54,247 nucleotides of DNA, taken from NCBI GenBank assembly GCA_026991575.1, contig JALXBF010000109.1, positions 1 to 54,247 of the forward strand, written 5' to 3'. Made by a program: the position numbers and the translations under genes. Below, in pieces: positions 12,453 to 49,939 of this stretch. This DNA comes from Planctomycetota bacterium (GTDB lineage Bacteria; Planctomycetota; Planctomycetia; JALXBF01). Within the stretch, counting starts at the first letter, position 1; every line of letters starts with the position of its first letter. Under the pieces are notes generated by a model. That model saw only the letters and a program-made list of their open reading frames with translations. It made no database searches and was not told the DNA's origin.

Positions 12453-14396
12453 CTACAGCGACCGCAGGTACTCAACGAGGGCTTCCATGTCCTCGCCCTG
12501 AATGTGGGCATGTTCCTCGGCGTTGTGCATGTATACGGCGTCCGCCAGCGTCTTGGCCCGTCCGTCATGCAGCCAGGGACCGTCATCCCAGGTTCCCCTC
12601 AGATCCGGGACATCGTACTCGTCCGGCTGGATCCGATCGCCGTTCGGCAGAACGAGCACGTCGGGCCGACCCTTGCCCGTACCCGGCGCACGACGCACGA
12701 TCAGCACCTCGTCGTGCGGGAAGTGGCACTTGGTGCAGCCGGCAATGTAGTCGCCCTCGAAGATCGCACGGCCGCGTAACGCCTTCTCCGTTAGCTCGCC
12801 GTTTGGCTTGCGGAATGGGTTGGGGACCTTCGGAATCGATAGCACATAGGCTTCCAGCTTGGCGATTTCGTCCGGCAATGGCTTGCCACCACGCATGACC
12901 TGCTCGATCGTCGGGAGGCACTCGTCGTTGCCCACCGTTCGGGCTTCCCCTTGCCAGCGGAACGGGCTCGTACCTGCAATGCCACGCAGCGATTTGATGT
13001 CCTTGAACGTGCCCAGGCCATCATCGGCCAGGTCCCACGCCAGCCGGGCGTTGTGCCCTTCCGGGTGGCACGTCGCGCAGGCGAACTGATTACGGTAGCA
13101 GAACAGCGAGGAGTTAAACAGAATCTCGCCCTCACGCAATCTGCTCCTCTCCGACGGCCCAACAGCGAAGCGACGCACCAGCTCCGACTTGTCCCCCACA
13201 CGAACGGCAGCGACCGTCTCGTTCAGACGCTCGACGACGTAGAGCCAACCGTCTGCCCCCGCAAGGCCCTGCGGATTGGCCGCCACCGTCACGTACTGTA
13301 CCCTGTCCCTGGCAAGCGAGGTGCGGGGACCGGGGGCCGAACTTGCGGTCGGTAACGCATCAAACCGCCTCAACAGCCACGCTGCGTCGATAAGCAGCAC
13401 GCGGTCCGCCGCGCCACACGCCACCACCAACCACCGCCGACCGCCTCCGTCGCGGACCAACACCAGGTCGTACGGATTGGCGTAATAACGTTCAGTAGTG
13501 TCCAGCACGAAGGCACGCACTTGGGGCGATTCGCCCAATCGGATCAGGCCGATAGCGTGGTTCCATGGCGCAGGTTCACCGGCAGCCGGTACGTCGGGTC
13601 GCGGGATCGAGTACGCGAAGGCAATGGTGCGATCGTCCAGGTAAGCGATGCCGCGCAGGTTGGCAGCAGGCTTGACGGGGATCGTCTGCAGCACGTCCAA
13701 GCTGTCGGCCGCCAGCAGCACAACGTACCGCTGCAGACCTGCGGCGTCACAGGTAACGGCTAGCGTGTTGCCGTTGGCGCTGAGGGCCATGTGCCGCGGG
13801 TTATCGGGCAGTCGCCTGCGAGCCACGACGCGTTTGGTCACCGGGTCGATGGCGCAGATCGTTTCGTCCTTGCCCATACAGGTGACATAAACCCGACCGG
13901 TAACAGGGTGCGTGATCAGGTCGAACGGCTGGTTGTCCACGGCGACGTGACAGATCGGGGCCTGAGAGCGAAGATCGAGAACGGTTACCGTGTCCGAGTA
14001 GCGGTTGGCCACATAGAGCGTTTCTCCGTCGGGTGACAGCGCGATCCCGTTGGGGTAGTCCTGGGCCGGCAGTTCGGCCAAGACCGTGCCCTTGGCAGTG
14101 TCGAGCACGATGACCGCTCTGGCGTTACTTGCGGAGACGTACAGACGGCCGCGGTCTGGATCGACTGCCGCACGCAGCGGGGTCCGGTAACGCCGGTCCA
14201 GTTCCGTCGGGTCCGGGGCAACCGTACGGAATGTTTGCGGGACCGCCGAACGATCCTCAACGAGCACGAGTTCTGCTGGCCGAGGCGCAAGAAGCGAAGC
14301 CAGGTCCAGGTAGCCGCTGAGCTGTAGGCTGAGCGGAATGAGCAGCAGTACGAGCAGGATGGCGAGCAGAAGCAGACGTCGCTGCACGCGTATCAT
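12453..14396 (-). CDS. YVTN beta-propeller + diheme cytochrome c peroxidase-fold fusion; hydrazine synthase beta-gamma-like paralog 2
   Basis: N-terminal TM anchor; propeller repeats (PNGIALSPDGETLYVANRYSDTVTVLD); CATCH and CTKCH; WDLADDGLGTFKDIKSLRG..PFRWQG; YDVPDLRGTWDDGPWLHDG; clearly paralogous to 43081-44925. Confidence 0.8.
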   Translation of the reverse strand: MIRVQRRLLLLAILLVLLLIPLSLQLSGYLDLASLLAPRPAELVLVEDRSAVPQTFRTVAPDPTELDRRYRTPLRAAVDPDRGRLYVSASNARAVIVLDTAKGTVLAELPAQDYPNGIALSPDGETLYVANRYSDTVTVLDLRSQAPICHVAVDNQPFDLITHPVTGRVYVTCMGKDETICAIDPVTKRVVARRRLPDNPRHMALSANGNTLAVTCDAAGLQRYVVLLAADSLDVLQTIPVKPAANLRGIAYLDDRTIAFAYSIPRPDVPAAGEPAPWNHAIGLIRLGESPQVRAFVLDTTERYYANPYDLVLVRDGGGRRWLVVACGAADRVLLIDAAWLLRRFDALPTASSAPGPRTSLARDRVQYVTVAANPQGLAGADGWLYVVERLNETVAAVRVGDKSELVRRFAVGPSERSRLREGEILFNSSLFCYRNQFACATCHPEGHNARLAWDLADDGLGTFKDIKSLRGIAGTSPFRWQGEARTVGNDECLPTIEQVMRGGKPLPDEIAKLEAYVLSIPKVPNPFRKPNGELTEKALRGRAIFEGDYIAGCTKCHFPHDEVLIVRRAPGTGKGRPDVLVLPNGDRIQPDEYDVPDLRGTWDDGPWLHDGRAKTLADAVYMHNAEEHAHIQGEDMEALVEYLRSL

Positions 14397-15104
14397 AGCC
14401 GGACTCCCGTTCTGCCAGCCCGACCGTGCACGTGGCCGTCTCGGTCGTCCCATCCACCCTATGCAGTTCTTGCTCAGTCGAGACGATCGCACGTATGGTC
14501 GGGCTCGCTACCGCTGTGCCACAGGCAGAAGAACGGACAGTACCGGCGGGCAGCTTGACGTTGCTACCGGTTTATACCCTTCGGTCCAGCGGCCAGTTCG
14601 GAGCGAGGACCAACGGACGACATGATGCAGACGCGGCGGGCCAGAAGCGACGGACGTGGCGTGGGTGCCAGGGGTACGAGTCTTTGCCGATGGTGCAGAC
14701 GCTGTCTGTGTGCGTCGTGAGGGGAGGAGACGGAAAAGCAAGCGGGCGGCGCGTGTGCTCATCGCTCGCCGCTGCGGCCCGAGGCGGGGGATTTGTCCCG
14801 GCTGCCGGTTTGCAGGGAAGCCAATCGCATCGGGCCGGGCCGGTAGCGCTCAGTCGGCGAAGCGTCCGCCGATGGGGTATCGTCGGTGATTCAGCCACGA
14901 CTTGCTCCGGGGCCGTGCATGTGGAAGCTTAGCTGGAGCCGGCCCCGGGGGCTCGGCCAGCAGCCGGGGCCGGCGGGGGCAGGGAAGCGACCCGGGGTTG
15001 GCCGGAGTTCGGCTTCACGCCGTCCCGTGTCTTCGGCTCATCCTCCTGGCGACTAGCTGCGAGGATAGCCGGCGCGATGCCCGCGCCTCTGCTGATGGGA
15101 CCTG

Positions 15105-36311: not shown

Positions 36312-36875
36312 ATGGCGGAGACAGGCCTGCAGCCTGTTGAGCAGCCGGAGCCCTGGCCCAGGAGACGACGCACCGTGCTGGCTCTGGCCCTAGCCGGCTG
36401 CGCGGTCATCCTGGCTGCGGCGGGATGGGTGGGCAGAAGGGTGACGGAGCGGCCCGAGTTCTGTGCCGCCTGTCACGAGATGAGACCGAGCTACGAGCAA
36501 TGGGTCTGCTCCTCCCACTACCAGCCCGAGCTGGGGGTCACGGCGACCTGCCAGGATTGCCACGTGGCCCCCGGCTTCACGGGCGCGTTGCAGAGCAAGC
36601 TCAGGGGACTGGTCCATGTCTACCGGCACCTGACCGAGCCATGGGATCCGATCCGATGGGAGGCCGACCGACTTCGGCGGCAACAGGTGGCCCGCGCGCA
36701 GATCGCTAACGAGGCATGCATCCGCTGTCATAAGCCGCCCGAAATAGCGCCTGCGCTGACCACCGTCGACCACACCAAGGTGGGCCCACGCAGCCGCTGC
36801 GTCGATTGCCACCGCAACCTGATGACGGGCCGTCGTCCGGCAATCCGTCGGCTGGCACACGCAATCGGAGAGTAG
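36312..36875 (+). CDS. NapC/NirT/NrfH-family membrane-anchored tetraheme cytochrome c (quinol dehydrogenase)
   Basis: N-terminal TM; FCAACHEM (CxxCHxM), SSH..CQDCH, CIRCH, CVDCH; GGAGG RBS. Confidence 0.9.
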   Translation: MAETGLQPVEQPEPWPRRRRTVLALALAGCAVILAAAGWVGRRVTERPEFCAACHEMRPSYEQWVCSSHYQPELGVTATCQDCHVAPGFTGALQSKLRGLVHVYRHLTEPWDPIRWEADRLRRQQVARAQIANEACIRCHKPPEIAPALTTVDHTKVGPRSRCVDCHRNLMTGRRPAIRRLAHAIGE

Positions 36876-36878
36876 ACC

Positions 36879-38210
36879 ATGCTGCCGAACCGCCTCCGTC
36901 GCCGCCGCTGGAAGGCTGCCCTGGCTGGCTTCATCTTGCTGGTTCTTGCGGGGACCGTAGCGGCCCGTCTATGGCGCGGGGACATGGCGGCATCGTCGGT
37001 ATCGCCGCCGGCGCCGGCCGCTGGGCAGGCCGTCGTGCTCAAAGACGCCTACGTGCCGAAAGGGTTCACGGTCCACGAGGCTCAGGCCATCTTTGATGCG
37101 CTCGCCAGGCAGATGCCGCTGGCGGCGGATGCATTCCGCAGAAGCGCCCACTACCGCGAGGGTATGACCTGTGTGACCTGCCATCAGGAGCTGCGCTGGG
37201 ACCAGGCCAGCGGCTCGGTGGATGTCACTTCGCTGGGACGCGTTCCGCCGGAGCGGTGCGGCGAATGCCATGAGCAGGAGTACGACGGTTTCCGAAAGAG
37301 TCGACACTTCAAGGCGGTGACCGTCTTCCGGGAGGTGGTTCGCTACAAGGCGCTGGCCGGCTACCCGGCCATGCAGCAGCAGGGCTGCAATCGTTGCCAC
37401 GAACCGATCGGTCAGAGTTGTTCAGCCTGCCATCCGGCCCACCTCTTCGAGCCGCCCAGACCGCCAAAGGACGAGTTCGGCGGGTGCCAGCGGTGTCACC
37501 TGGGACCCGACCACCACCAGCTCGAATCGTACGTAGCCAGCGTGCACTACCAGGTCGCGCGCGCCCGGGGGGACGGGATCCCTAACTGCGTGTTCTGCCA
37601 CACTGCCGACGACAACAAGCACCACATCTTCCGGATCAAGGGCACCAAGGACCATGGCAGGACAGCGCTGATGGCCAAGTGCACACAGTGTCACACGGAG
37701 CAGTTCGCTCGCCGAGCATTCGAAGGCATCGACGCCATCAAACATGAAACGAACAAGGTTGTCGATGCAGCGCGGCAAATCATTCGGGATCTGTATGCCG
37801 ACGGGATCCTCAACCGCGTCTCTGGCTCACTGACCGACGAGCAGGGCCTGCCCGCTCTGAACCCAAACCTGACCGCTTACGACCAGCATGTCCATCCAAT
37901 CGAGAACTTGATGTTCCGCATGTTCAAATACGATGCCGTGGCAACGATTGCCGGTGCTCAGCACTTCAGCGCAGTACGCACGCACTGGTACGGCCACGCT
38001 CAGCTCATGGAGACTTACAACCGCATCCGGCAAATGGCGCAGGAGCTGCGGTTCATGCATGCGCTGAGCAAGAAACTGGGCGTGCCGCTGCCGTCGATTC
38101 CCGTCTACCGCTACACGCACGAGACCGGCCGCGAGCTGGACGAACCATGGCACGATCCGGTGGGCTACCGCAAGAGATTGGCGGAGTTCTACAGCGAGGT
38201 CAATGAGTGA
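36879..38210 (+). CDS. Hydroxylamine oxidoreductase (HAO)-family multiheme cytochrome c with 7 CxxCH motifs
   Basis: TM anchor; CVTCH, CGECH, CNRCH, CSACH..H.F, CQRCHLGPDHHQLESY..SVH, CVFCH, M..CTQCH; helical C-terminus with GAQH..HWYG; spacing is typical of HAO/epsilon-Hao hemes 2-8. Confidence 0.85.
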   Translation: MLPNRLRRRRWKAALAGFILLVLAGTVAARLWRGDMAASSVSPPAPAAGQAVVLKDAYVPKGFTVHEAQAIFDALARQMPLAADAFRRSAHYREGMTCVTCHQELRWDQASGSVDVTSLGRVPPERCGECHEQEYDGFRKSRHFKAVTVFREVVRYKALAGYPAMQQQGCNRCHEPIGQSCSACHPAHLFEPPRPPKDEFGGCQRCHLGPDHHQLESYVASVHYQVARARGDGIPNCVFCHTADDNKHHIFRIKGTKDHGRTALMAKCTQCHTEQFARRAFEGIDAIKHETNKVVDAARQIIRDLYADGILNRVSGSLTDEQGLPALNPNLTAYDQHVHPIENLMFRMFKYDAVATIAGAQHFSAVRTHWYGHAQLMETYNRIRQMAQELRFMHALSKKLGVPLPSIPVYRYTHETGRELDEPWHDPVGYRKRLAEFYSEVNE

Positions 38211-38286
38211 ATGGGTTACCCGGCCGACGAAAGTCGTCGCGGGCCGCGGAGCCACTGTCCTGGAGCGAATCGGGAGGAGCTGAGCC

Positions 38287-39606
38287 ATGAGTGATGCTTT
38301 CGGTGCGCTTCATCGCCGCCGTTTTCTGAAGCTATCTAGCGGCATCGCCATTGGGAGCTGGACGGCCGCAGCGGCTACCGCCGCGTCGGCTCGACCAGCT
38401 GTATCGGCTGCTGAGACGGTAACGGTCGCGATTATCGGATGCGGTATTCGAGGTGGCCATCTGCTGCGCGCGTTTCAGCGGGTGCGGGGCTGCACCGTGG
38501 CCGCTGTGTGCGATGTCCATCGCGGCCGCCTGGCCAAAGCGCGCGACGCCGCAGGCAGCAGCGTGATGGCAACCACTGACTATCGCCGCATTCTCGATCG
38601 CAAGGACATCGATGCGGTCGTGGTGGCCACGCCTGATCAATGGCACGTCCTGATAACGATCCACGCATGTCAGGCCGGCAAGGATGTCTATGTCGAGAAG
38701 CCGCTGGGTGTGACGATCGCCGAAGGACGTGCCGCCGTGCGCGCGGCCCGAAAGTACAACCGGGTCGTCCAAATCGGCACGCAGCAACGCAGCTGGCCGC
38801 ACTATGCCGAAGCGGTCGAGATCTTAAGGTCAGGCGAGCTGGGCACCATCAGCGAAGTGAAGGTGTGGGACTATGAGAACCAATACCCAGGCTTTGGGAA
38901 CCCGCCCGACGAGCCGGCACCTGCGGAACTGGACTGGGACTTCTGGCTGGGACCGTCCCCTCTGGTGCCGTACAACCGCAACCGGTATCTCCACCACTAC
39001 TGGTTCTTCGACTACGGCGGTGCCTGGCAAGTCGACTGGGCCGTCCATCACTATGACATCGTCCACTGGGCCATGGGCGTGCGGTGGCCCCGGACGGCGA
39101 CAGCCAGTGGCGGCAAACTGTGCTTTGAAGACAACCGAGAATGGCCCGACACGTTCGAAGGGATTCTCGAGTACGGACCATGTGACCTGGCACCGAAGGG
39201 GTTCGTGCTGCAGTACACGTTCCGAGGGGGCTGTCGGCGGGAGCGGCACAACCACGCCAAACTGTTCTGCGGCACCCACGGTTCAATGCTGCTGGACCGC
39301 AGCGGGTACTACATCCTGGCCGAAACGCACCGCGGACAGCGGGTGATCAAGAGCAGGGAGGTGCGGGCCAAAGAGCCGCCACGTCACCAGGAAGCGTTTC
39401 TGGAGAATGTGCGTGAGCGGAAGCGGCCGTTTGCCGACATCGAGGAAGGCCATTACGCCACGAATCCCGGGCACCTGCTGAACATCGCCTGGCGACTGGC
39501 CAGGAAGATCGTCTGGGACGGCGAAAAGGAGCAGGTCCTCGGCGATGAGGAGGCCAACGCACTGCTTGGGCGGAAGTTTCGCGCTCCGTGGGAGCTGACG
39601 ATCTGA
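38287..39606 (+). CDS. Tat-exported Gfo/Idh/MocA oxidoreductase
   Basis: HRRRFLK twin-arginine leader; IIGCGIRG; ATPDQWH; KDVYVEKP; QIGTQQRS; LDWDFWLGP; DWAVHHYD. Confidence 0.93.
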   Translation: MSDAFGALHRRRFLKLSSGIAIGSWTAAAATAASARPAVSAAETVTVAIIGCGIRGGHLLRAFQRVRGCTVAAVCDVHRGRLAKARDAAGSSVMATTDYRRILDRKDIDAVVVATPDQWHVLITIHACQAGKDVYVEKPLGVTIAEGRAAVRAARKYNRVVQIGTQQRSWPHYAEAVEILRSGELGTISEVKVWDYENQYPGFGNPPDEPAPAELDWDFWLGPSPLVPYNRNRYLHHYWFFDYGGAWQVDWAVHHYDIVHWAMGVRWPRTATASGGKLCFEDNREWPDTFEGILEYGPCDLAPKGFVLQYTFRGGCRRERHNHAKLFCGTHGSMLLDRSGYYILAETHRGQRVIKSREVRAKEPPRHQEAFLENVRERKRPFADIEEGHYATNPGHLLNIAWRLARKIVWDGEKEQVLGDEEANALLGRKFRAPWELTI

Positions 39607-40213: not shown

Positions 40214-43027
40214 TCACCGGCTCAGGGCATAGGCCGGGCTGGTCAGTTCCGGGCCGGTGGTTATCCGGACGCGGATGCGCCAGGCACCGGAGAAGTTGTG
40301 CACCTTGAACAGCAGCTGGTTCTCTCCCTTGCGCAACCTTACCGGGATCACGTCCCAGTCATACCAGAAGGGCTGACGTACCAGCCGTTGGATCATGGGC
40401 TGACCGTTCACGAACAGCTCGAACATATCGTCGGCCGTAACACGCACCCAGACCGTCTGGTCTCGGTCAGAAGGCACGATGGCCAGCGCGTACGCAGTGG
40501 CGGGACCGGACGGTCTGAGCACCCGGCCCAGATTCAGGACGCCGGTCGGCTCATCCACGTGAACTTCTTGCCACCCGATCTGGCCGCTCGCTGCCGAGAA
40601 CTTTGCCCCCGGATCGAACCGCTGCTGCTCGGGACCGAAGCGGGTGCGGATGCCGGCTGCGCCACGGTTGTCGAACGGGCCGCAGACGTACCAATCCCTC
40701 ACTTCGCCGGCATTGTCGGTGAGAGTGTGGACGTAGCGGGCAATCAGCTCCACCTCTTCGTCTTTGATCCAGTTCCTGGCCTTTTGCTGCATGTTCCGCA
40801 CGGTCTCGAGCCATTTCGCCATGCTGCGCCTGAGCCCCAGGAACTTCCGAAGGCCATGACACCGCGTGCAGCGCACTTCGGTGGCCTGCTTGCCGTCGGT
40901 GAAGGTGATCTTTGCGTAGTCGGGCTGCCTAGCGCGCCACTGCTGAGCGAGCGCCGCGCTCTGCTTGCGGTTGTAGCCCGGGTACGGGTCTGGACCGGGG
41001 ATGTTGTCCCATTGAGCTCCGAGGTCGATCCACAGAGCGAACAGACGTTTCTCTTCGTCGGTGAGCGGCTCGTCAGGCGGACATTGATTGACTTCGGTGT
41101 TGTACTCGAACGAGTACCCGTACAGCCGCCAGATGAGTGGGCTCTTGCGCGCAAAGCCCGGGTAGATGTACTTGCCGGTGCGGTAGTCGGCCGGGGCACA
41201 CAAGCTTAAGTACGACTTGCTGAAGAACGCCCCGTTGATCTCGTAGGCGCGGTCGGGCATGGTGACGCGCGGGATGAACACGAGCTTGTCACCACCGGAA
41301 AGATCCAGCCCCCCTTCGGCTTTCTTCTCGTTATGGCATCGCACGCACTTGCGTTCGATAATCGGGATCAGGTCGCGGCGGAAGTCGACCGTTTTTCGGT
41401 CTTCGGGCTTGGTTACAAGATCGACTGGTCCGGCGGTGGCGGCCAGCGGCACGCGGTCCAGGAGCGGCGGCCGACTTCGCCGCTCGTGGCAGCCGACACA
41501 GGTGCGATGCTCTCCGGGCCGGACCCAGATCCAGGTGAGCGCATCCTGCAGTGCCATGCCGTTCTCGTCAAGCACCTGAAGATGCAGCACCGTATCGGCT
41601 GGTACCTTGACGTAGAACGAACCGTCGCTGGCCACGGGCGCCTCGCCCACAACCCGCTTCTGTTCGAAGTTGCTGATGGAGTTGGTCGATGAGCCGAAGG
41701 AGGAGAAGCCGATGCCGGGCAGCAGCGTGCGGAAGGTGTCGTTGTCGTCCTCGACACCGAAGCCCTCGATGATCCGGACCCGCTTGATCTGCCCCGGCTT
41801 GATGAACGCTTCCTTGTCCGTCTGACCGATGTAGGCGTTCAGGCACAGCAGCGTTCCCCAGTTCTGATGGCGGGCGATGTTGTGGTCGGGGATGATTGGT
41901 GGTTTGGGCCGAGCTTCCACATAGATCGGGTTCAGTGCCTGGTAGTTCGGGTCGTTGTACACGGGCGCCCCTCGCTTGCGGGCCTCAATATCGAACCAGT
42001 AGATGCCAAACTGCGCCTTGGGCCCCTCAGGGTTGCGGTAGCCGCTCCAGCAGGGCGGCGGTGACCAGCAGACCAGCAGGCGGCCGTCACGGGTCGGGTA
42101 CGGATCGCGATAGCGGCCCCCGGGAGTGTTCGGCCCGTACAGGCGGACGTCAGGAGTCAGATTGACCATGGCCTTGCGATCGTCCGGGTCGCCCGGGGTC
42201 AGTAGCGCGAGCGCGCCGCCGCCGTAGGCATGGTGGAAGACGCTTTCGATGTACACGATCCGCCCGTCGGGCAGCTCGCGCTGTTTCCACCGGAAGCCGC
42301 CGCGATGGTTGCCATAGAAGTCGATGAACTCGGTGCCGTCCGGGTTCATCGTGAACAGAGCGGATGCACCAGAGGTGTGGAACCGCATGCCATGATGTTG
42401 CCAGCTCTGAAACAGCACCCGCCCGTCGCTGAGTACGATGAACTCCGAGTCGGAGCTGAGGTTGAAGGAGATCTGTTCCACGTTGCTACCGTCCGGATCA
42501 CAGCGGTGGACTAGCCGGGCATAGTCGCGGTCATATTCATCCCGCCGCTTGTGCGGATCCATGGCCACATGGCGTGTGGAGCTGAAGATGATCCGGCCGT
42601 CAGGCAGGTAGTACGGCGAGCAGGCGTCGGCCATGCCGCGCGTGATCTGTCGTTTGTTCTTGCCGTCCAGGTCCATCTCCCAGATTTCCCAGCCATCCTG
42701 TGGCGTGCGTCGCCCGGAGAAGATGATCTTGGTGCCGTCGTAGCTGAGCTCCGGTTCGTCGGCACCGTAGAACTCCGGTGTCAACACCGTCAGCTTCCCG
42801 TCCGGGCGGGGGGGCGAGAGCTTCACGATCTCCATTCCGGGCACATGCGCAGACTGCCCGAAGTGGTACATGAACGGCTCGTAGTGGATGCCGGGCCGTC
42901 CGTTCGGACGATTCTTGATCCGCACGAAGATGATCGCCCCTTCGTCCCGGTTCACCTCTTCGGCGTAACTGGCAGGGACGGCCACGATGGCCGCGACGAA
43001 AGGCAGAACTGCTAACCACCACTTCAT
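40214..43027 (-). CDS. Hydrazine synthase alpha-subunit-like protein with three CxxCH motifs and an added C-terminal beta-sandwich domain
   Basis: Signal peptide; TolB-like propeller (PYYLPDGRIIFSSTR, RDEY..DGSNVEQISFN, SWQHHG, LFTMNPDGT, GRYRDPYP); HZS-alpha middle domain GEAPVASDGSFYVKVPADTVLHLQVLDENGMA..WIWVRPGE..CVGCHE; VDFRRDLIPII..KCVRCH; extra CTRCH. Confidence 0.85.
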   Translation of the reverse strand: MKWWLAVLPFVAAIVAVPASYAEEVNRDEGAIIFVRIKNRPNGRPGIHYEPFMYHFGQSAHVPGMEIVKLSPPRPDGKLTVLTPEFYGADEPELSYDGTKIIFSGRRTPQDGWEIWEMDLDGKNKRQITRGMADACSPYYLPDGRIIFSSTRHVAMDPHKRRDEYDRDYARLVHRCDPDGSNVEQISFNLSSDSEFIVLSDGRVLFQSWQHHGMRFHTSGASALFTMNPDGTEFIDFYGNHRGGFRWKQRELPDGRIVYIESVFHHAYGGGALALLTPGDPDDRKAMVNLTPDVRLYGPNTPGGRYRDPYPTRDGRLLVCWSPPPCWSGYRNPEGPKAQFGIYWFDIEARKRGAPVYNDPNYQALNPIYVEARPKPPIIPDHNIARHQNWGTLLCLNAYIGQTDKEAFIKPGQIKRVRIIEGFGVEDDNDTFRTLLPGIGFSSFGSSTNSISNFEQKRVVGEAPVASDGSFYVKVPADTVLHLQVLDENGMALQDALTWIWVRPGEHRTCVGCHERRSRPPLLDRVPLAATAGPVDLVTKPEDRKTVDFRRDLIPIIERKCVRCHNEKKAEGGLDLSGGDKLVFIPRVTMPDRAYEINGAFFSKSYLSLCAPADYRTGKYIYPGFARKSPLIWRLYGYSFEYNTEVNQCPPDEPLTDEEKRLFALWIDLGAQWDNIPGPDPYPGYNRKQSAALAQQWRARQPDYAKITFTDGKQATEVRCTRCHGLRKFLGLRRSMAKWLETVRNMQQKARNWIKDEEVELIARYVHTLTDNAGEVRDWYVCGPFDNRGAAGIRTRFGPEQQRFDPGAKFSAASGQIGWQEVHVDEPTGVLNLGRVLRPSGPATAYALAIVPSDRDQTVWVRVTADDMFELFVNGQPMIQRLVRQPFWYDWDVIPVRLRKGENQLLFKVHNFSGAWRIRVRITTGPELTSPAYALSR

Positions 43028-43080: not shown

Positions 43081-44925
43081 TCAGAGGGAAAGCAGGTAGG
43101 CAATCAGGTCCGAGAGCTCTTGCTCGGTCAGCTGCGACGTCTTGCCGTGCTTGTCCTCAGGGTTGTACTTGGTGAAGACCTCACGAAGCGTTCGCGCACG
43201 GCCGTCGTGCAGGTAGGGGGGGCTGTCCCAGATGCCCACCAGCTGCGGGACGTCGAACTGAGTGGGGTAGATCGTGTTGCCGGAAGGCAACTTCAGCGGA
43301 GCGTACCGCCCCTTACCGGTGCCCACGTCGCGCCGCTTGCGGTTCGTGAACTTCGGCCCGCTATGGCACTTGATGCAGCGAGCCTTCCCTTCGAAGATCT
43401 GCTTGCCGCGGCGAGCCGCCTCGCTCAGCGAGCCGTCCGGCATGCGATACGGATTCGGTACCAGCGGCACGGAGCGGACATAGCTTTCCAGCGCCTCCAG
43501 ATCGGCCGGCGACAGGGGGCTCCCGCGCATGGCGAGCGTCACCGTCGGCCCGCACTCATTCGCGCCGATTTCGGCTGCCTCGCCTTGCCAGCGGAACGGA
43601 CCGGTACCGTCCACACCGCGGAAGCTCCGGATGTTCTTGACGTTGCCCAGCCCGTCGTCTTCCAGGTCCCAGCTCAGACCGGTCGTGTGTCCTTCCGGAT
43701 GGCAGCTCGCACAGGAAAACTGACGCTGGAAGCAGAGCGTCGCCGAGTTGTACAGGATCTCGCCACGCCGACGCATCGTGATCCTGGCAGTTTCGCCCAC
43801 CGGGATGCTCGTGCCCACGGTCAGGTGCCCGAGGTCGATGACGGAGAGCGTGTCGGCGAGCCGGTTGGCCACCACCGCCACATCGGCTCGCGGCACCAGC
43901 GCGATGCCATACGGATTGCGCCCCACCGGGATCACCGCCAGCCGATACGGCCGGCTCGCTCCAAGCGGCACATAGCCGCGTTGCCCCTTCAGCCTGCTTG
44001 CTTCCGCCAACAGCCGAGGCAGGTCATACACCAACACCTCATCAACGCCGGCGCAGACCACAAACAACCGACGGCCCTCCGGACCGACGGCTAGCCCGTA
44101 CGGGTTGGCGAAGTAGCGGTGTGCCTCGTCCAGGATCACAGTCTGAACCTGGTCCTTGGAGGCCGTGTACCGGATGAAGCTGATCGCGTTGTTGTTCACC
44201 CAGCCCTGGCGAACCTGCGTCAACGGCACAAACGGCTTGGGAATCAAGTGGGCCACGGCAAGAACGCCGGGGGCTACCTCGATCAGATCCCGTAGGTTGC
44301 TGGCTGGCCGAAGCTCGAAGCGGCCGACGATCTTGCCGCTGGCCAGCTCGATCTGCACCACGGGCCTGCTCAGGTCGTAGGCGTCGCAAGCGACAAACAG
44401 GTACCGACCATCCCGGCTGACGGCCAGGTGTCGCGGATTCTGGGCCACGCTGATGCGACGCAGCAGCGTGCGCTGTGCCACGTCGATTTCCACGACCACT
44501 TCGTCCTTGCCCATGCAGCTAACCCAGAGCCGATCACGCCCGGTCCACTCCACGTCGTACGGTTGGTTCGGCACCGGCACGGTTGCGGCGACCTGGAGGT
44601 CGGGCAGCGTAAACAGGTAGAGCTCGTCGCTGTAGCGACACGCGACCGCGGCCAGCTTGCCGTCGGCTCGTACAGCAACGCCCGTCGGCTCGCGCCCCAC
44701 AGGCGTCTCCCGCACGACCTGGCCGCCGTCCAGGTCAACCAGGCTGACGGAGTTGCCCTGGTGGTTGGTGACGACTACCAGCGCTGTGCCCGGAACGGCA
44801 GCGACCTGAAGCGGCGATCGATAGTGGGGCTGATCGGCCGGCGAGGCGGTAGTGCTGGGCGCCAGGAGCAGGAGCACCGGTAGCAGGAAGAGCAATTGCG
44901 TACGAGGCTGCTGCTTGGCGTGCAT
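43081..44925 (-). CDS. Hydrazine synthase beta-gamma-like fusion (YVTN propeller + diheme CcP/MauG-like domain)
   Basis: Signal peptide; YRSP start; PKPFVP..QGWVNNNAI, LDE...FANPYGL; FQRQFSCASCHPEGHTTGLSWDLEDDGLG..KNIR..RG..PFRWQG; CIKCH; DVGTG; FDVPQL..PYLHDG; DKHGKTSQL; GGAGG RBS. Confidence 0.85.
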   Translation of the reverse strand: MHAKQQPRTQLLFLLPVLLLLAPSTTASPADQPHYRSPLQVAAVPGTALVVVTNHQGNSVSLVDLDGGQVVRETPVGREPTGVAVRADGKLAAVACRYSDELYLFTLPDLQVAATVPVPNQPYDVEWTGRDRLWVSCMGKDEVVVEIDVAQRTLLRRISVAQNPRHLAVSRDGRYLFVACDAYDLSRPVVQIELASGKIVGRFELRPASNLRDLIEVAPGVLAVAHLIPKPFVPLTQVRQGWVNNNAISFIRYTASKDQVQTVILDEAHRYFANPYGLAVGPEGRRLFVVCAGVDEVLVYDLPRLLAEASRLKGQRGYVPLGASRPYRLAVIPVGRNPYGIALVPRADVAVVANRLADTLSVIDLGHLTVGTSIPVGETARITMRRRGEILYNSATLCFQRQFSCASCHPEGHTTGLSWDLEDDGLGNVKNIRSFRGVDGTGPFRWQGEAAEIGANECGPTVTLAMRGSPLSPADLEALESYVRSVPLVPNPYRMPDGSLSEAARRGKQIFEGKARCIKCHSGPKFTNRKRRDVGTGKGRYAPLKLPSGNTIYPTQFDVPQLVGIWDSPPYLHDGRARTLREVFTKYNPEDKHGKTSQLTEQELSDLIAYLLSL

Positions 44926-45448: not shown

Positions 45449-48400
45449 ATGAGCAGCAGTGTTCAGAAGAGGCCCGTCACCGCCTTCCTGGTTGCACTCC
45501 TGTCCTGCCTGGCCGTCGTTCGGGCGGCTGCTTGGGGCCAAGCGGGAACCGGCGTACAGGAGCGGGCGCCTGATCCCGCCGCGCTTCGGCAGCTGAAGGC
45601 CGCGGCGCGTTTCTTTCAAGAAGGCAAGTACGACTTTGCCGCGGACACGTACCGCGAGTTTCTGAATCGCTACGGGCAGATGCCTGAGGCTGAGGAGGCC
45701 CGCTTCTTCCTGGCCGAATCCCTCATGCTCCTGAAGCGCTATGACGAAGCGCACCGCGCCTACCAGGACTATCTCCAGCGTCATCCCGATGGTCGCTACC
45801 TGCCCTGGGCCCGATTCCGACTCGGCGAGTCGGCGTTTCTTGCCGGACGGTGGCAAGAGGCAATCGAGCAGCTCCGTGCGTACGTCTCGCAGCACGGTGG
45901 CCATCGGATGGTGCCATACGCGGAGCGGTACATCGGTGAGGCGTTGTTGAAGCTGGGCCGCAATGAAGAGGCGGAACGCCAACTTCGGGCCACGATCCGC
46001 CGGTACCCGAAATTGCCGGTGACGGACCACGCTCGCTATGCCCTGGCTCAGCTGTTGGAGGCCCAGCAGCAGCGGGACGAAGCGTTGCAGTTCTACTTGG
46101 TGGTTGGCCAGGGGAACTCATCCGTTGCGGATGACGCGCTGCTGGCTGCCGGCACCATCGAATACGCTGCCGGGCGGTACGCGCATGCGCAGAAGCTGTT
46201 CGAGACGCTGTTGCAGCGGTTTCCACAGAGCAAACTTCGGTGGACGGCTCACTTCAACGCCGGACTCAGCCTGTTTCGTCAAAAACGCTACGCTGCAGCC
46301 GAAGGCCACTTCATGCTGGTTGCCGGCGCACGGAAGGGTGATGAGCTCGGGTTGGAAGCCGCCTACTGGCTGGGCCGCTGTCTGGCCGAGCAGGGCAACG
46401 GCGACGAGGCAGCGCGCCGGTTGGCCGAGCTGGCCGACCAGGCAGTCAAGGCGGGCAAGGTCGATCTGGCGGCGCGCGCACTGTACGAAAGTGCTCGAAC
46501 GCTTGCGCAGAGTGGCGATGTCACAGCGGCCGTGACCCGATACCTGGCGGTTGCAAGCCGCTTCCCCGAGCACGAACTGGCCGAACAAGCAGCCGCGCAG
46601 GCCGTGTTCACCGCGGCACGCAGCGAAGCGAACGCCAGGGCGATCGAGCTGGCCGACAGCTACTTGCAGACGTTCCCCGAAGGCAAACGCCGTGCTCAGG
46701 TGGCGCTGGCCGCTGTGCGCGCCGCGCTGGCGGAGCGCAAGCCGGACGTGGCCGAACGATGGGTCAGGATCGCTTTGCAGGACGGCGACCAGACCGTGAT
46801 CCGCGCCGGTCGGTACTACCGCGCGCTGATCGAGGCTGATCGGGGGGCTTATGCCCAGGCCGTGCAGACGCTCGACCCGTTGCTCACCGATGCCGAAACG
46901 GCGCGGGTCTTGCCGGAAGCCTACTTCCTTGCGGGCCGGTGTGCCTATCAGTTAGGCCGGTATGCAGACGCGCTGAAAGCGCTTGCAGTGTTCTTGCAAA
47001 CGCAGCCCGACGAGGAGTTGGCGGCGCATGCGCGCGCGTACCGCGTGGTCTCCTTAGCGCATCTGGGGCAGTTTGACGGCGTTCTCGAGGAGCTGCAGCA
47101 GTTGGCCGATACGGCGGACGTGCGCATCCCAGCTGCGCTTGCAGCCGCGGACGCCTTCTATGACCGGGAAGCTTATGAGCCAGCTGCGACGTTGTACGGC
47201 ATCGTCGTTGCCGCGGAAGGCGTCGACGAGCAGGACCGGGCCTACGCGCTGGCCGGCCGCGCCTGGGCACGCTTCTACGCGGGCCGGATCGACGAGGCGT
47301 TGAGCGATGCCGACGAGTTCCTCAAGCGATACGCGGACCACAAGTTGGCGGCCGAAATGCTTCTCTTGACCGGCTTCGCCCACAAGCAGGCTGGAGCGAT
47401 CGACAAGGCGCTGGCAGCGTTCGATCGTCTCGTGAGACGCTACGCCGACAGCGATCTGGTGGTCGATGCGCTGCTTGCGCGCGCCCGGCTGCTGGTGCAA
47501 GCGGACCGGTCCGCGGAGGCACTGGCCGCGTATGCCGACGCGCTCGCCATCCTCCGCAGCGGTCAGCAGAGCAGCCGCGCGGGGCGGAGCAAGGAGGACT
47601 CTGATCGCGACCTGGCCGGGGTGCTCGGCGAGTATGCCTGGGCGCTGTGGAAGGCGGGCAAAGTGGACGAGGCGATAGCGCACTATCGTGAGTTAATCCA
47701 GCGCTTCCCCGACGCGCCCGGCACGGCCAAGGCCGAGCTGAACCTGGCCCAGCTGCTGCTGGACCGCAACGACCCGGTGGCACGCCAGGAGGCGGTAGCT
47801 CTAGCTACAAAGCATCTGTCGGCCGGTGATTCGGAGTTGCGGGCCGAGGCATCGTTCCTGCTGGCCCGCGCCGCTTTTGCGGAGGCGGACTGGTCGCAGG
47901 TGGAGAAACACTGCCGCAACTATCTGGAAATCGCCGCCGACGGTCCTCGCGCGGCTCAGGTCTACTACATGCTGGTCGAGGCCCTCTACGAGCAGCAGAA
48001 GGGCAACGAGTTGGGCGACACGCTACAACGGGCCCTGGCCGTGACGAACCAGGACGCGCCATGGCGGGGCCGGTTGCTGCTGCGACGGGCTCAGTGGCTC
48101 ATCGGCCAGCGAAGATGGCAGGAGGCGATCGAGGCGCTGCGGCCGCTGCTGGGCGATCCGTCGAATTCTCTGCGACCGGTTGCCGAATACTACAGAGGTA
48201 GGGCGCTGTACGAGCAGGGCAAGCTCAACGAGGCGCTCGCTGCGTTCAAGGAGGCGCTGGCGGCGGAGGATGCTGAGTTAGCGGCGCGGGCGCAGTTCAT
48301 GATCGGCGAGACGCTGTTTGCGCAGCGGCAATTCCGTGCCGCGATCCGCGAATTCCTAAAGGTAGACCTGGTCTATGACGTTTCACGCTGGCGAGCCGCG

Positions 48401-48571
48401 GCTCTGGTGGAAGCGGGCAAGTGCTACGAGCAGCTCAGGGAATGGCGTGCCGCGCGGGAGGTGTACGAGAGGGTGCTGAAGGAGTTTCCTGACGAGCCGG
48501 TGCGGCAGGAGGCCGAACGCCGGCTGAAAGCGATCCAGACCATGTCTGCGATGCGAAAGGGCACCGGTTAG
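45449..48571 (+). CDS. Large secreted TPR protein (BamD/YbgF-like repeats)
   Basis: Signal peptide; repeated A..Y..FL..YP...A.A.F.LGE helices; ARAQFMIGETLF..FLKV C-terminus. Confidence 0.88.
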   Translation: MSSSVQKRPVTAFLVALLSCLAVVRAAAWGQAGTGVQERAPDPAALRQLKAAARFFQEGKYDFAADTYREFLNRYGQMPEAEEARFFLAESLMLLKRYDEAHRAYQDYLQRHPDGRYLPWARFRLGESAFLAGRWQEAIEQLRAYVSQHGGHRMVPYAERYIGEALLKLGRNEEAERQLRATIRRYPKLPVTDHARYALAQLLEAQQQRDEALQFYLVVGQGNSSVADDALLAAGTIEYAAGRYAHAQKLFETLLQRFPQSKLRWTAHFNAGLSLFRQKRYAAAEGHFMLVAGARKGDELGLEAAYWLGRCLAEQGNGDEAARRLAELADQAVKAGKVDLAARALYESARTLAQSGDVTAAVTRYLAVASRFPEHELAEQAAAQAVFTAARSEANARAIELADSYLQTFPEGKRRAQVALAAVRAALAERKPDVAERWVRIALQDGDQTVIRAGRYYRALIEADRGAYAQAVQTLDPLLTDAETARVLPEAYFLAGRCAYQLGRYADALKALAVFLQTQPDEELAAHARAYRVVSLAHLGQFDGVLEELQQLADTADVRIPAALAAADAFYDREAYEPAATLYGIVVAAEGVDEQDRAYALAGRAWARFYAGRIDEALSDADEFLKRYADHKLAAEMLLLTGFAHKQAGAIDKALAAFDRLVRRYADSDLVVDALLARARLLVQADRSAEALAAYADALAILRSGQQSSRAGRSKEDSDRDLAGVLGEYAWALWKAGKVDEAIAHYRELIQRFPDAPGTAKAELNLAQLLLDRNDPVARQEAVALATKHLSAGDSELRAEASFLLARAAFAEADWSQVEKHCRNYLEIAADGPRAAQVYYMLVEALYEQQKGNELGDTLQRALAVTNQDAPWRGRLLLRRAQWLIGQRRWQEAIEALRPLLGDPSNSLRPVAEYYRGRALYEQGKLNEALAAFKEALAAEDAELAARAQFMIGETLFAQRQFRAAIREFLKVDLVYDVSRWRAAALVEAGKCYEQLREWRAAREVYERVLKEFPDEPVRQEAERRLKAIQTMSAMRKGTG

Positions 48572-48604
48572 GGGCCCCGAGGTGTGTGGAGAGGTCACGA
48601 GCCG

Positions 48605-49453
48605 ATGAAGCGAACGTTCTGGCCGCTGTCACTTGTTGCTGGAGCTGTTATCTTTGGCTTGTTCGTGTCGCCCGTGTTCGCCCAGCAGTTCACGGCGGCG
48701 AAGGTGTTGGAGGGGCTGATCCCCGACGAGGCGAACCCGATCGTGGCGATCCTGCGCCGCGGTGGGGTCCTGATGTATCCGATCCTCGGCTGTTCGATCC
48801 TCCTCGTTGCGGTCGCGCTGGAGCGGCTGATTGCCCTGCGGCGCGCGCGTGTGATTCCACAGCCGTTCGTGGACCGCTTCCTGGCCGATCTGCGTGAAGG
48901 CCTCTTGGACCGGGACGCGGCGCTGTTGCGGTGCCGCAGCGACGGCAGCCCTGTCGCACGTGTTCTGGAGCACGCGGTCCGCCGCTGGGGGCGACCGGCC
49001 GTGGAGATCCAGCAGTCGGTCGCCGAAGGGGGGCAGCGCGAAGTGCTCGAACTGCGCCGGAATCTACGTGTGATCAACGGCATCTCGACCGTGGCACCGC
49101 TGCTCGGCCTCCTTGGCACAGTGATCGGCATGATTCGCTGCTTTGCCGAAGTGGCCGCTCAGACCGACGCCATGGGTAAGCCCGAGGCGCTGGCCCAGGG
49201 CATCTACGTGGCGCTGTACACGACCGCGTTCGGTCTGAGCGTCGCGATCCCAGCACTGATCGTGTACTACTACTTCCTCGGGCGGGTGGATCGGCTGGTG
49301 GCCGAGATCGACGCGCTGGCTCAAGAGGTGATCGAGCTGGTTGCCGGCGACGGGGCGGTTGCGCCGGTACGGGGGATCGTGCCGGCCGACGGTGATCATC
49401 GGCCTCAGGTGCGTACCGCCAAGACGGTCCACTCCGCACGACAGAGCGCGTGA
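48605..49453 (+). CDS. exbB: MotA/TolQ/ExbB proton channel protein
   Basis: GGVLMYPI, APLLGLLGTVIGMI, GIYVALYTTAFGLSVAIP. Confidence 0.93.
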   Translation: MKRTFWPLSLVAGAVIFGLFVSPVFAQQFTAAKVLEGLIPDEANPIVAILRRGGVLMYPILGCSILLVAVALERLIALRRARVIPQPFVDRFLADLREGLLDRDAALLRCRSDGSPVARVLEHAVRRWGRPAVEIQQSVAEGGQREVLELRRNLRVINGISTVAPLLGLLGTVIGMIRCFAEVAAQTDAMGKPEALAQGIYVALYTTAFGLSVAIPALIVYYYFLGRVDRLVAEIDALAQEVIELVAGDGAVAPVRGIVPADGDHRPQVRTAKTVHSARQSA

Positions 49454-49482
49454 CGCGAACTTCCAGCGGGAGCAGCCGGGCG

Positions 49483-49935
49483 ATGTTGTCGGGAACCCAG
49501 CAAGACGACCTGCCCACGCTGAACATGACCCCCCTGATCGACATGGTCTTCCTGTTGATCATCTTCTTCCTCGTGGGTACACGATTCGAACAGTACGAGA
49601 ACGAACGCAGGCTGGACCTGCAGGTGCCCGAGGTCGCAGCGGCCCGTCCCATGGTGTCCGCACCGTCGCAGTTGGTGATCGAAGTGACACGCGACGGGAC
49701 GATCCGCTGGGCAGGTTCGCCTGTGTCGCTTCCAGAGCTGGCGAAGCGCCTGGCCGAAGCGTTGCAGGACGATCCAGACCGTGCTGTGCTCATCCGGGGC
49801 GACGGCCGCGCAACGCTACAGCCGGTGGCTGACGTGCTCAGCATCTGCCAGCAGCAGGGCGTGCGCCACCTTGGTGTGAGCGTGCGCGAGCGGCGGCAAC
49901 GGCCCGAGCGGTTACAGGAGCAGCGGTCGGAGTAA
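49483..49935 (+). CDS. exbD: ExbD/TolR protein
   Basis: LNMTPLIDMVFLLIIFFLV (conserved Asp); VLIRGD. Confidence 0.93.
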   Translation: MLSGTQQDDLPTLNMTPLIDMVFLLIIFFLVGTRFEQYENERRLDLQVPEVAAARPMVSAPSQLVIEVTRDGTIRWAGSPVSLPELAKRLAEALQDDPDRAVLIRGDGRATLQPVADVLSICQQQGVRHLGVSVRERRQRPERLQEQRSE

Positions 49936-49939
49936 CGCG

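Follow-up and report, generated by a model that had tools for sequence, protein, structure and literature searches.

An HZS alpha-like protein lacking the heme-ligating tyrosine marks a planctomycete clade and is most probably not an anammox-type hydrazine synthase

The question raised by this locus is whether a relative of the alpha subunit of anammox hydrazine synthase (HZS) should be expected to make hydrazine when the tyrosine that binds its first heme is missing. In HZS, heme alphaI is ligated by Tyr591 while His587 of its CxxCH motif sits on zinc, as described in PMC12758564 and 10.1101/2023.01.22.525020, and the facts on the Kuenenia structure given in an initial sequence-only reading of this DNA agree with these sources. 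The features discussed here (Table 1) lie in the window, i.e., the whole 54,247-nt stretch analyzed, on contig JALXBF010000109.1 of a Planctomycetota bacterium (GCA_026991575.1).

Table 1. Coordinates of the features in the window
Feature	Position	Strand	Description
HZS-alpha-like gene (P0001)	40214..43027	-	937 aa; ORF, profile and fold matches
Heme alphaI motif C510-V-G-C513-H514-E-R-R-S518-R	41471..41500	-	residues 510-519; translation, alignment
His514	41486-41488	-	His of the heme alphaI CxxCH
Ser518	41474-41476	-	His+4; translation
His241	42305..42307	-	at the position of HZS Zn ligand Cys303; alignment
His211-His212	42392..42397	-	invariant in the clade
His265	42233-42235	-	candidate pocket His
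His482	41582-41584	-	candidate pocket His
Heme alphaII motif CVRCH	41333..41347	-	residues 561-565; alignment
Cys649 of CPP	41081..41083	-	candidate distal ligand of heme alphaII
Third heme motif CTRCH	40856..40870	-	residues 720-724; small cytochrome-c-like domain
Fused HZS beta-gamma-like gene (P0241)	43081..44925	-	614 aa; 53 bp upstream of alpha
Second beta-gamma-like paralogue	12453..14492	-	no alpha partner; 39% to the first
NapC/NirT-type tetraheme cytochrome	36312..36875	+	linked only in the window's family
HAO-family heptaheme	36879..38210	+	Tyr371 at 37989-37991; linked only in the window's family
Gfo/Idh/MocA oxidoreductase	38287..39606	+	convergent on the alpha gene

By profile, alignment and predicted fold, the protein is truly homologous to HZS alpha, as the sequence-only reading had taken it to be. 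It matches 5c2v_A (E 7e-64), the Pfam HZS_alpha domain spans residues 412-515 (E 6e-27; PF18582 score of 94.4 bits against a cut-off of 26.6), and its AlphaFold model (pLDDT 91) matches the HZS alpha fold (Z 38.8, rmsd 2.8, 603 residues). The PF18582 score, the HZS fold and a co-located beta-gamma gene place it in the HZS-like superfamily. From the N to the C terminus, it comprises a signal-like hydrophobic stretch (the signal peptide being judged by eye), a beta-propeller, the HZS middle domain carrying the heme alphaI motif, the heme alphaII domain, an extra third c-heme domain, and a C-terminal beta-sandwich. The cytochrome-c-like third-heme domain, which gives a weak Cytochrome_CBB3 match below the cut-off, has no counterpart in HZS alpha. 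A scan of the locus for promoters and terminators stayed near chance level.

The heme alphaI CVGCH is not a chance CxxCH: it forms the end of the HZS_alpha domain, and in the alignment its HZS alpha counterpart is C583-x-x-C586-H587. The decamer CVGCHERRSR is encoded as first read, with Ser at His+4 and no Tyr in the 8 residues past His514. Ser590 and Tyr591 of HZS alpha fall in a two-residue gap, and an anammox-only insert of ~50 residues past heme alphaI is also absent; thus, on this alignment, Ser518 does not correspond to Tyr591, and the tyrosine is lost by a two-residue deletion rather than by substitution with serine. Tyr occupies His+4 in 12/12 anammox rows versus 0/152 non-anammox rows. 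The same gap was already published for HZS homologues (Hagglund et al. 2025, PMC12758564), and, as far as the aligned sequences go, HZS relatives outside anammox bacteria normally have no Tyr here. Tyr loss alone therefore adds nothing new; in practice, it can serve to keep genes of this kind from being mistaken for anammox markers. Tyr residues 140, 306, 310, 357, 399 and 606 are invariant in the clade, as is 165 with one row excepted, and at the sequence level they mostly align with non-ligand positions of HZS.

The proposed check of both the Tyr ligand and the zinc-binding Cys against HZS alpha held for the former, which is absent, and gave a less simple picture for the latter, since Cys303 is replaced by His241, a possible metal ligand. 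Among the 19 clade proteins covering this position, 11 have His and 8 have Gln. Cys303 is itself not diagnostic of anammox HZS because, according to PMC12758564, Ca. Scalinduaceae lack it. Conventional His ligation and loss of the metal site, both proposed in the initial reading, are inferences. His211, His212, His265 and His482 may line a His-rich pocket close to heme alphaI, a placement taken from strand order only.

The gene upstream encodes a protein with two heme motifs (CASCH at 405 and CIKCH at 517) that folds as HZS beta and gamma in structure comparison. At the sequence level, it keeps the three Cys of heme gammaI (C405, C408 and C458, the latter equivalent to gamma Cys165) and the bis-His pair of gammaII (H521 and distal H593), while Trp446 stands for gamma His144, Thr for gamma Asp168, and the beta-loop Glu is absent. 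The NCBIfam hydrazine_alpha model scores the alpha-like protein at 288.3 bits against an equivalog cut-off of 800, and the BC fusion model scores the beta-gamma protein at 218.1 bits against 1250. In the host genome (97.8% complete), hydrazine dehydrogenase (HDH) is absent (best match 82 bits versus 900), and hydrazine synthesis by the host is hence unlikely. A search of this genome recovered a heme-copper oxidase and NapA but neither NirK, as a NO source, nor SoxB. The low family scores, the lack of HDH and the replaced beta-gamma residues all argue for the earlier suggestion that hydrazine is probably not made in the anammox way, and we are strongly confident that this is not an anammox-type hydrazine synthase.

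A genuine hydrazine or N-N synthase with a rebuilt site, in which His241, His211, His212 and His265 would hold a metal and a Tyr-type HAO would oxidize the product, could nevertheless account for the anammox gene order, the three-Cys gammaI, the His at the Cys303 position, the adjacent Tyr-bearing HAO and the BLAST score of 252 bits to anammox alpha, compared with 123-179 for seven clade-I-group rows; Cys303 is also dispensable in Ca. Scalinduaceae, which lack it (PMC12758564). We regard it as very improbable given that Tyr591, Asp168, His144 and the beta-loop Glu are all missing, that Gln is frequent at the Cys303 position, that the host is without HDH, that searches of 8 other genomes recovered the HAO partner in none (8/8 negative), and that HZS condensation is described as tied to an oxidized, Tyr-ligated, very-low-potential heme.

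Judged from sequence, the alpha-like protein identifies a tight clade of planctomycetes that falls outside the architecture published for clade I. This clade branches separately, with full support, in the alpha tree (apart from L056-L059) and in the beta-gamma trees, and its pocket residues are very highly conserved, with long invariant runs; its genomes are kin and not independent. Bit scores and gene order suggested that it could be the sister of anammox HZS, which the trees did not establish. The careful alpha tree groups anammox with a 19-row group including clade-I-type proteins (96/89), a grouping of anammox with the window clade was not rejected in an AU test on 30 rows (p 0.208), and from beta-gamma the two came out as sisters under LG+G4 (SH-aLRT 80) and in a polytomy under a mixture model (quick tree). 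Another protein, P0059, reaches 300 bits to anammox alpha and keeps the anammox-like His.

With HzsA/B/C of Ca. Kuenenia stuttgartiensis (5C2V/5C2W), the locus shares the alpha, beta and gamma folds, both alpha CxxCH motifs, the conserved C-terminal WIDLGAQWDNIPGPD stretch, the three-Cys gamma heme, the bis-His gammaII, the order beta, gamma, alpha and an HAO-family gene nearby, and beta-gamma is likewise fused in Ca. Scalindua HZS. Besides the Ser590/Tyr591 gap, the missing insert, the changes at Cys303, His144, Asp168 and the beta-loop Glu, and the lack of HDH in the host, it differs by CPP in the His772 region, by the third heme and beta-sandwich on alpha, and by an identity of only ~29-30%. 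Clade I, as described in PMC12758564, has in common the Ser590/Tyr591 gap, the loss of Cys303, His772 and the beta-loop Glu, the kept alphaII motif and gamma Cys165, and Trp at His144. Its order is alpha, an FG-GAP gene, then beta-gamma with 4-8 extra N-terminal hemes (a layout with 8 extra hemes is seen in L087-L089), whereas in the window a two-heme beta-gamma precedes a three-heme alpha with no FG-GAP gene. Unlike clades II/III, reported in the same source to be without an alphaII site and ~100 aa shorter, the alpha-like protein has both the alphaII site and the C terminus. The hzs-like genes of Phycisphaerae UBA1845 (Suarez et al. 2023, PMC10732223) also belong to non-anammox Planctomycetota, with a fused hzsBC-like gene beside hzsA-like and no hdh; there, hzsA lies upstream of hzsBC and scores 89-163 bits, against the reversed order and 252 bits here, the figures being only roughly comparable because the databases differ. 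The clade resembles HZS alpha markedly more than clade-I-type proteins do, and its compact two-gene layout suits expression. It matters more than the Tyr loss, since it gives testable leads on the role of non-anammox HZS homologues; three of them, namely, a candidate Cys-ligated heme, an Arg153-less CysI neighbor and a Tyr-type HAO, had no earlier report that we found in the HZS-homologue literature.

The first lead concerns heme alphaII. In place of the His772 of a bis-His alphaII, the alpha-like protein has CPP, whose Cys649 aligns with the Met of the next group's MPP, with anammox His772 nearby, and is a candidate distal ligand from its position in the alignment. CPP occurs in 20 of the 21 clade proteins, the remaining one being without the region, so that Cys649 is invariant (20/20) where covered; the site is MP in 34/36 next-group proteins and His in 12/12 anammox proteins. 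The second lead is a CysI paralogue, directly upstream in 7 of the 12 loci with upstream DNA, in which Arg153, an anion-binding residue (10.1101/2024.06.14.599029), is Cys or Gly while Lys215 and Lys217 are kept. It is an additional copy beside canonical CysI in 2/2 genomes checked, and passes the PRK13504 (sulfite reductase hemoprotein) cut-off in 4/5; searches of G000 and G405 did not recover it. Our literature search found no paper on the activity of an R153S variant, nor one linking Arg153 loss to a hydroxylamine preference. These two features could indicate a sulfur-oxyanion or sulfane-sulfur enzyme, with a Cys-ligated alphaII resembling the Cys/His hemes of TsdA/SoxA, which are the active sites of TsdA according to PMC9562282, and with the Arg153-less CysI acting on a sulfur product of partial reduction, which might derive from the sulfated or sulfonated glycans to which a sulfatase and glycoside hydrolases in some loci may point. 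The window's family, however, keeps Cys649 without the CysI variant, the host is without SoxB, CPP also appears in 7/63 more distant proteins, and alphaII is surface-exposed in HZS; a sulfur role is unlikely in our view.

The third lead is restricted to the window's family. Tyr371 of the heptaheme lies at or beside the cross-link site of oxidative HAO/HOX: it aligned with the HOX Tyr in two alignments and was one column off in a broader one, where 31/90 rows share it. This protein is without one of the eight HAO hemes, and its gene is on the opposite strand behind the Gfo gene and therefore not in the alpha operon. A close orthologue was not found in the 8 other clade genomes searched (8/8), and HOX-type genes lie 3' of hzsA in 4/4 anammox loci that were extended. 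At locus L051, the neighbor is a CooS, and not an Hcp as once considered, with 7b7q, which we take to be CooS-V, as its best PDB match. Hydroxylamine is a slow substrate of CooS-V according to PMC9311411. Altogether, the anammox gene order and the altered N-/S-oxide enzymes nearby are hints at the role of such proteins.

We favor, tentatively, an exported five-heme HZS-like redox complex (three hemes on alpha and two on beta-gamma) that would carry out no Tyr/Zn N-N condensation and would turn over NO or hydroxylamine; that the substrate is such a small nitrogen oxide is a suggestion held at less than even confidence. Alpha and beta-gamma would assemble as in HZS, and electrons would enter at gammaII, the bis-His heme, and pass on to gammaI, the three-Cys heme, with the Trp lying between the two as in MauG/peroxidases. 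Heme alphaI would have the usual c-heme ligation, by His514, in a pocket lined by clade-invariant histidines and would therefore be reducible, unlike the Tyr-ligated heme of HZS, while a Cys/His-ligated, low-potential alphaII and the third heme could form alpha's own electron path. The product would be removed by the partner of each lineage, i.e., the Arg153-less siroheme enzyme in most genomes or NapC and the Tyr-type HAO in the window's family. In favor of NO/hydroxylamine turnover, three different neighbors are members of families whose substrates are N- or S-oxides, 14 of the 15 distinct loci, that of the window among them, have a beta-gamma gene immediately upstream of alpha, and the gammaI heme attachment binds NO in HZS, as reported in 10.1101/2023.01.22.525020. 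Against it count the CysI paralogue, which points to sulfur as readily as to nitrogen, the Thr that replaces Asp168, for which proton handling at gammaI has been proposed, the L051 CooS, which retains a Cys at the position of a Glu in 7b7q and scores above the cut-off for canonical CODH, the pairing of the same alpha with a different beta-gamma without the third Cys at L009, L052 and L053, and an alpha without beta-gamma at L050.

The gamma fold and the inter-heme Trp are also those of the MauG/di-heme cytochrome c peroxidase superfamily, and Trp446, in the terms of PMC12758564, takes the CcP/MauG-like position. Activation of H2O2 or O2 at gammaI, followed by hopping along a Trp relay, could thus oxidize a substrate held by alpha, either a sugar derivative, with the C-terminal beta-sandwich binding carbohydrate, or a protein residue. 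Weak CCP_MauG and TTQ_mauG matches, the heme-copper oxidase of the host, the Gfo oxidoreductases and glycan-related genes that accompany several loci, and other host proteins with the same C-terminal domain are consistent with such an enzyme. It appears rather doubtful, as gammaII keeps an HZS-type distal His where MauG has Tyr and CcP has Met, the distal catalytic Glu of both seems replaced (on our reading of the alignment), and the CysI variant is left unexplained. Unlike members of that superfamily, the gamma domain is fused to a beta-propeller and has a third heme-binding Cys, and the scores lie far below the MauG/peroxidase family cut-offs.

We find it distinctly unlikely that the clade stands in for a pre-anammox state, in which an HZS-like complex of an aerobe or facultative anaerobe, with the same gene order, already used its three-Cys gamma heme for the first half-reaction, the reduction of NO to hydroxylamine. 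If so, the product would pass to the His-ligated alphaI heme or to a partner (Tyr-type HAO with NapC, or the Arg153-less siroheme reductase), the later step to hydrazine synthesis would have been the insertion of two residues, Ser-Tyr, together with replacement of His/Gln by Cys, exchanging the ligand of the iron, and heterotrophic planctomycetes would hold an undescribed hydroxylamine/NO module. Quite improbable, too, is a scaffold for electron transfer or sensing with no catalytic heme chemistry on alpha and with neighbors that are incidental island cargo: the neighbors do differ between lineages and the same loci harbor several HZS-like paralogues in clusters, but the very high conservation of the pocket and the dedicated, altered CysI paralogue adjacent in 7 genomes argue otherwise. 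As for the second beta-gamma-like paralogue of the window, its orthologue heads a napC-heptaheme-gfo run in G405, a genome of the same family.

The sequence-only reading held that the first heme motif of the window alpha, CVGCHERRSR, has Ser at His+4 with no Tyr close by, as translation confirmed; the Pfam HZS_alpha domain closes with this motif. The hydrazine synthase (HZS) chemistry it drew on, with a Tyr on the iron and the motif His on Zn, agrees with the available text of PMC12758564 and 10.1101/2023.01.22.525020. Taking anammox alpha proteins from genomes above the NCBIfam cut-off (17 of the 401 sampled in the phylum), we found Tyr591 kept in all 17 anammox rows of a first alignment; in L024, one anammox alpha of 809 aa, C583/H587/Y591 match the published numbering. 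A larger alignment comprised 165 rows (12 anammox, 37 loci, and 116 proteins, with duplicates among them and four fragments excluded). Here, Tyr stands at His+4 in 12/12 anammox rows versus 0/152 other rows having the His, one further non-anammox row lacks that His, and no non-anammox row has a Tyr within 8 residues of it. Aligning the window protein to anammox alpha put Tyr591 in a two-residue gap at Ser590/Tyr591 and His241 at the Cys303 position, with an ~50-residue insert also missing. The available text of PMC12758564 reports the same gap and the loss of Cys303 and His772 in its HZS homologue clades I to III, and concludes that these cannot make hydrazine. Thus, the missing Tyr is real, but it is a family-wide trait already in print. 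According to the accessible parts of these sources, HZS condensation needs an oxidized Tyr-ligated heme of very low potential; as this heme should be missing here, hydrazine synthesis by the window complex appears highly improbable.

Both genes are homologous to HZS in sequence and in fold. The sole PDB sequence match of alpha is HZS alpha (5c2v_A, E 7e-64), and its AlphaFold model (pLDDT 91, built on a 117-row alignment) has 5C2V as best match in both Foldseek and VIA-align (the latter with Z 38.8, rmsd 2.8, 603 residues). The fused partner matches 5c2v_C (E 7e-39) and 5c2v_B (E 3e-34), the latter also being its top Foldseek match. Neither heme motif has been lost from it, and the gammaII His and the third Cys that binds heme are likewise conserved, but it has Trp at the His144 position, Thr at Asp168, and no beta-loop Glu. 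NCBIfam scores of alpha and beta-gamma are far under the HZS cut-offs.

At the Cys303 position, Cys occurs in 12/12 anammox rows, a sample apparently devoid of the fused-gene, Scalindua-type locus; Ca. Scalinduaceae lack Cys303 according to the available part of PMC12758564. The 153 non-anammox rows include His 46, gap 41, Gln 25, and Cys 0. Since the clade of the window alpha, described below, mixes His (11/19) and Gln (8/19), this residue would fit a hydrogen-bonding role better than that of an essential metal ligand. Eight histidines (H55, H61, H153, H174, H211, H212, H265, and H482) are invariant across 18 full-length proteins of this clade, and strand order in the model would place H211/H212, H241, and H265 on loops of one propeller face. 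The window alpha may or may not have a metal site.

The clade comprises the window alpha and 20 other proteins (P0002 to P0020 and P0040) 63 to 91% identical to it, the next dropping to ≤46%. It is rare, occurring at this level among 401 class genomes only in the window genome (G000) and in G405, a member of the same family; records of relatives are labeled Planctomycetaceae, Pirellulaceae, Fuerstiella, and Planctomycetota. All members except one fragment carry a third heme on alpha. CPP occupies the alphaII distal position in 20/21 proteins (one lacks the region), a position held by MP in 34/36 of the next group and by His in 12/12 anammox proteins; CPP also occurs in 7/63 more distant proteins. 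Because CPP stands where MPP gives Met, the usual cytochrome c ligand, the alphaII heme of the clade is putatively Cys-ligated. Beta-gamma precedes alpha, which is also the anammox arrangement, in 14 of the 15 distinct loci; these are the window, L003 to L011, L048, and L050 to L053 (L047 duplicates L004 and L049 duplicates L010), with L050 as the exception. In contrast, the available text of PMC12758564 describes the opposite gene order for clades I to III, whose clusters also include an FG-GAP gene, placed between alpha and beta-gamma in clades I and II; L087 to L089 show this FG-GAP arrangement too. The window alpha scores 252 BLAST bits against L024 versus 123 to 179 for seven clade-I-group rows, and that text cites a range of 80 to 200. 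The top scores to anammox alpha among non-anammox rows belong to P0059 (300 bits) and P0060 to P0066; at its alphaII ligand position, P0059 keeps His-Asp-Lys-Phe, resembling anammox proteins.

In a thorough alpha tree, computed from 54 rows and 603 columns, eight sampled clade proteins form one branch (100/100) and fall outside a group joining anammox to 19 rows, clade-I-type proteins included (96/89); an alternative placement was not rejected (AU test, p 0.208). Of two beta-gamma trees, one gave a weak clade/anammox sisterhood (80) and the other none. The clade is close to anammox HZS, with a sister relation not established. Searches of the literature outside subscription journals found no description of the clade or of its CysI link, although members are possible among the raw hits of PMC12758564. 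In our view, the clade is a novel form within an already recognized but functionally uncharacterized family, and it offers useful leads.

Locations of the features discussed
Feature	Location	Details
HZS-alpha-like gene (P0001)	window 40214-43027 (-)	937-aa ORF
Heme alphaI motif	window 41471-41500 (-)	residues 510-519; His+4 = Ser518
Fused beta-gamma homologue (P0241)	window 43081-44925 (-)	614 aa; 53 bp upstream of alpha
napC, seven-heme HAO-family gene, Gfo	window 36312-39606	convergent on alpha
TPR protein, ExbB/MotA, ExbD, prenyltransferase-like repeat protein	window 45449-52420	divergent from the alpha/beta-gamma pair
napC/heptaheme/Gfo run of G405	L112:3566-8963	contig end; orphan beta-gamma paralogue at head
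Clade alpha without adjoining beta-gamma	L050:5859-8936	preceded by another distant alpha-like gene
CooS	L051:4857-6794	directly upstream of beta-gamma
Arg153-replaced CysI-like gene	L005:6098-7876	
Arg153-replaced CysI-like gene	L006:6214-7968	
Arg153-replaced CysI-like gene	L007:5977-7707	
Arg153-replaced CysI-like gene	L008:3724-5589	
Arg153-replaced CysI-like gene	L049:2523-4334	
Arg153-replaced CysI-like genes	L096, L097	
Second, distant HZS-like pair	G000:C65:84179-88680 (L002, L045)	alpha then beta-gamma
napA, tetraheme, cytochrome b, octaheme HAO-family protein	G000:C114 (L046:3824-9961)	
DMSO-reductase-family type II protein	G000:C1 (L119:960-4511)	1184 aa; Nar/Nxr-like
Heme-copper oxidase family protein	G000:C102 (L121:507-2948)	814 aa

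Directly upstream of beta-gamma, 7 of the 12 loci having upstream DNA carry a siroheme hemoprotein gene (L005, L006, L008, L010/L049, L007 in divergent orientation, L003 via L113, and L004, which a contig break splits), counts from related genomes that are not independent trials. The window, G405, L050, L051, and L052 lack it, and L009, L048, and L053 end too early. The product scores as CysI-like, but in alignment to E. coli SiRHP its Arg153, one of four anion-binding residues according to the available text of 10.1101/2024.06.14.599029, is Cys or Gly. Among 125 planctomycete CysI-like rows, residue 153 is Arg in 88, Cys in 34, Ala in 2, and Gly in 1; Arg214 is mostly His in the Arg153-replaced subfamily. 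A canonical CysI copy is additionally present in both genomes checked (G778 and G779), and the window genome has only NirA/SirA-type enzymes (27%). Sulfur chemistry by the HZS-like complex, a close rival of the reading that we favor below, is unlikely in our view.

The window and G405 have the napC/heptaheme/Gfo run in place of the CysI-like gene. Tyr371 of the heptaheme protein aligns with the anammox HOX Tyr, which we take to be the cross-link residue, where reductive relatives have His; another alignment sets it one column off. Tyr371 is a possible cross-link Tyr; the oxidative/reductive rule is given in the available text of PMC12758564. No close heptaheme orthologue was found in 8/8 other clade genomes searched, and with only five cluster representatives reaching E 1e-30, the subfamily is rare. 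The CooS of L051 has 7b7q as best PDB match and a noncanonical C-cluster region. The TPR-to-prenyltransferase-like set of the window was not seen next to the pairs of relatives.

We propose that alpha and beta-gamma would form a complex with a His-ligated alphaI heme and a Cys/His-ligated alphaII heme, in which gammaII and the third heme of alpha would be the entry points for electrons. The gammaI attachment that binds NO in HZS is retained, and the neighbors come from N/S-oxide families; on these grounds, we tentatively favor a putative NO/hydroxylamine redox chemistry. Peroxide-driven oxidation, its other close rival, also seems unlikely.

The host genome (4.96 Mb, 97.8% complete) shares the phylum of the anammox genomes, not their class. 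Hydrazine dehydrogenase was not found in it (best 82 bits versus a cut-off of 900), nor were NirK, SoxB, or Hcp/CODH. The host is not an anammox organism. The main conclusion of the sequence-only reading, that the enzyme probably does not make hydrazine by the anammox mechanism, holds, although already published. The gamma part of the second HZS-like pair lacks the third Cys. NapA is above its cut-off, and the run that begins with napA on C114 is a possible nitrate-to-ammonium module; its octaheme protein has His at the cross-link site, the reductive type. Heme-copper oxidases are present, one reaching 646 bits versus a CtaD cut-off of 671, and the L121 protein is possibly a candidate NO reductase.
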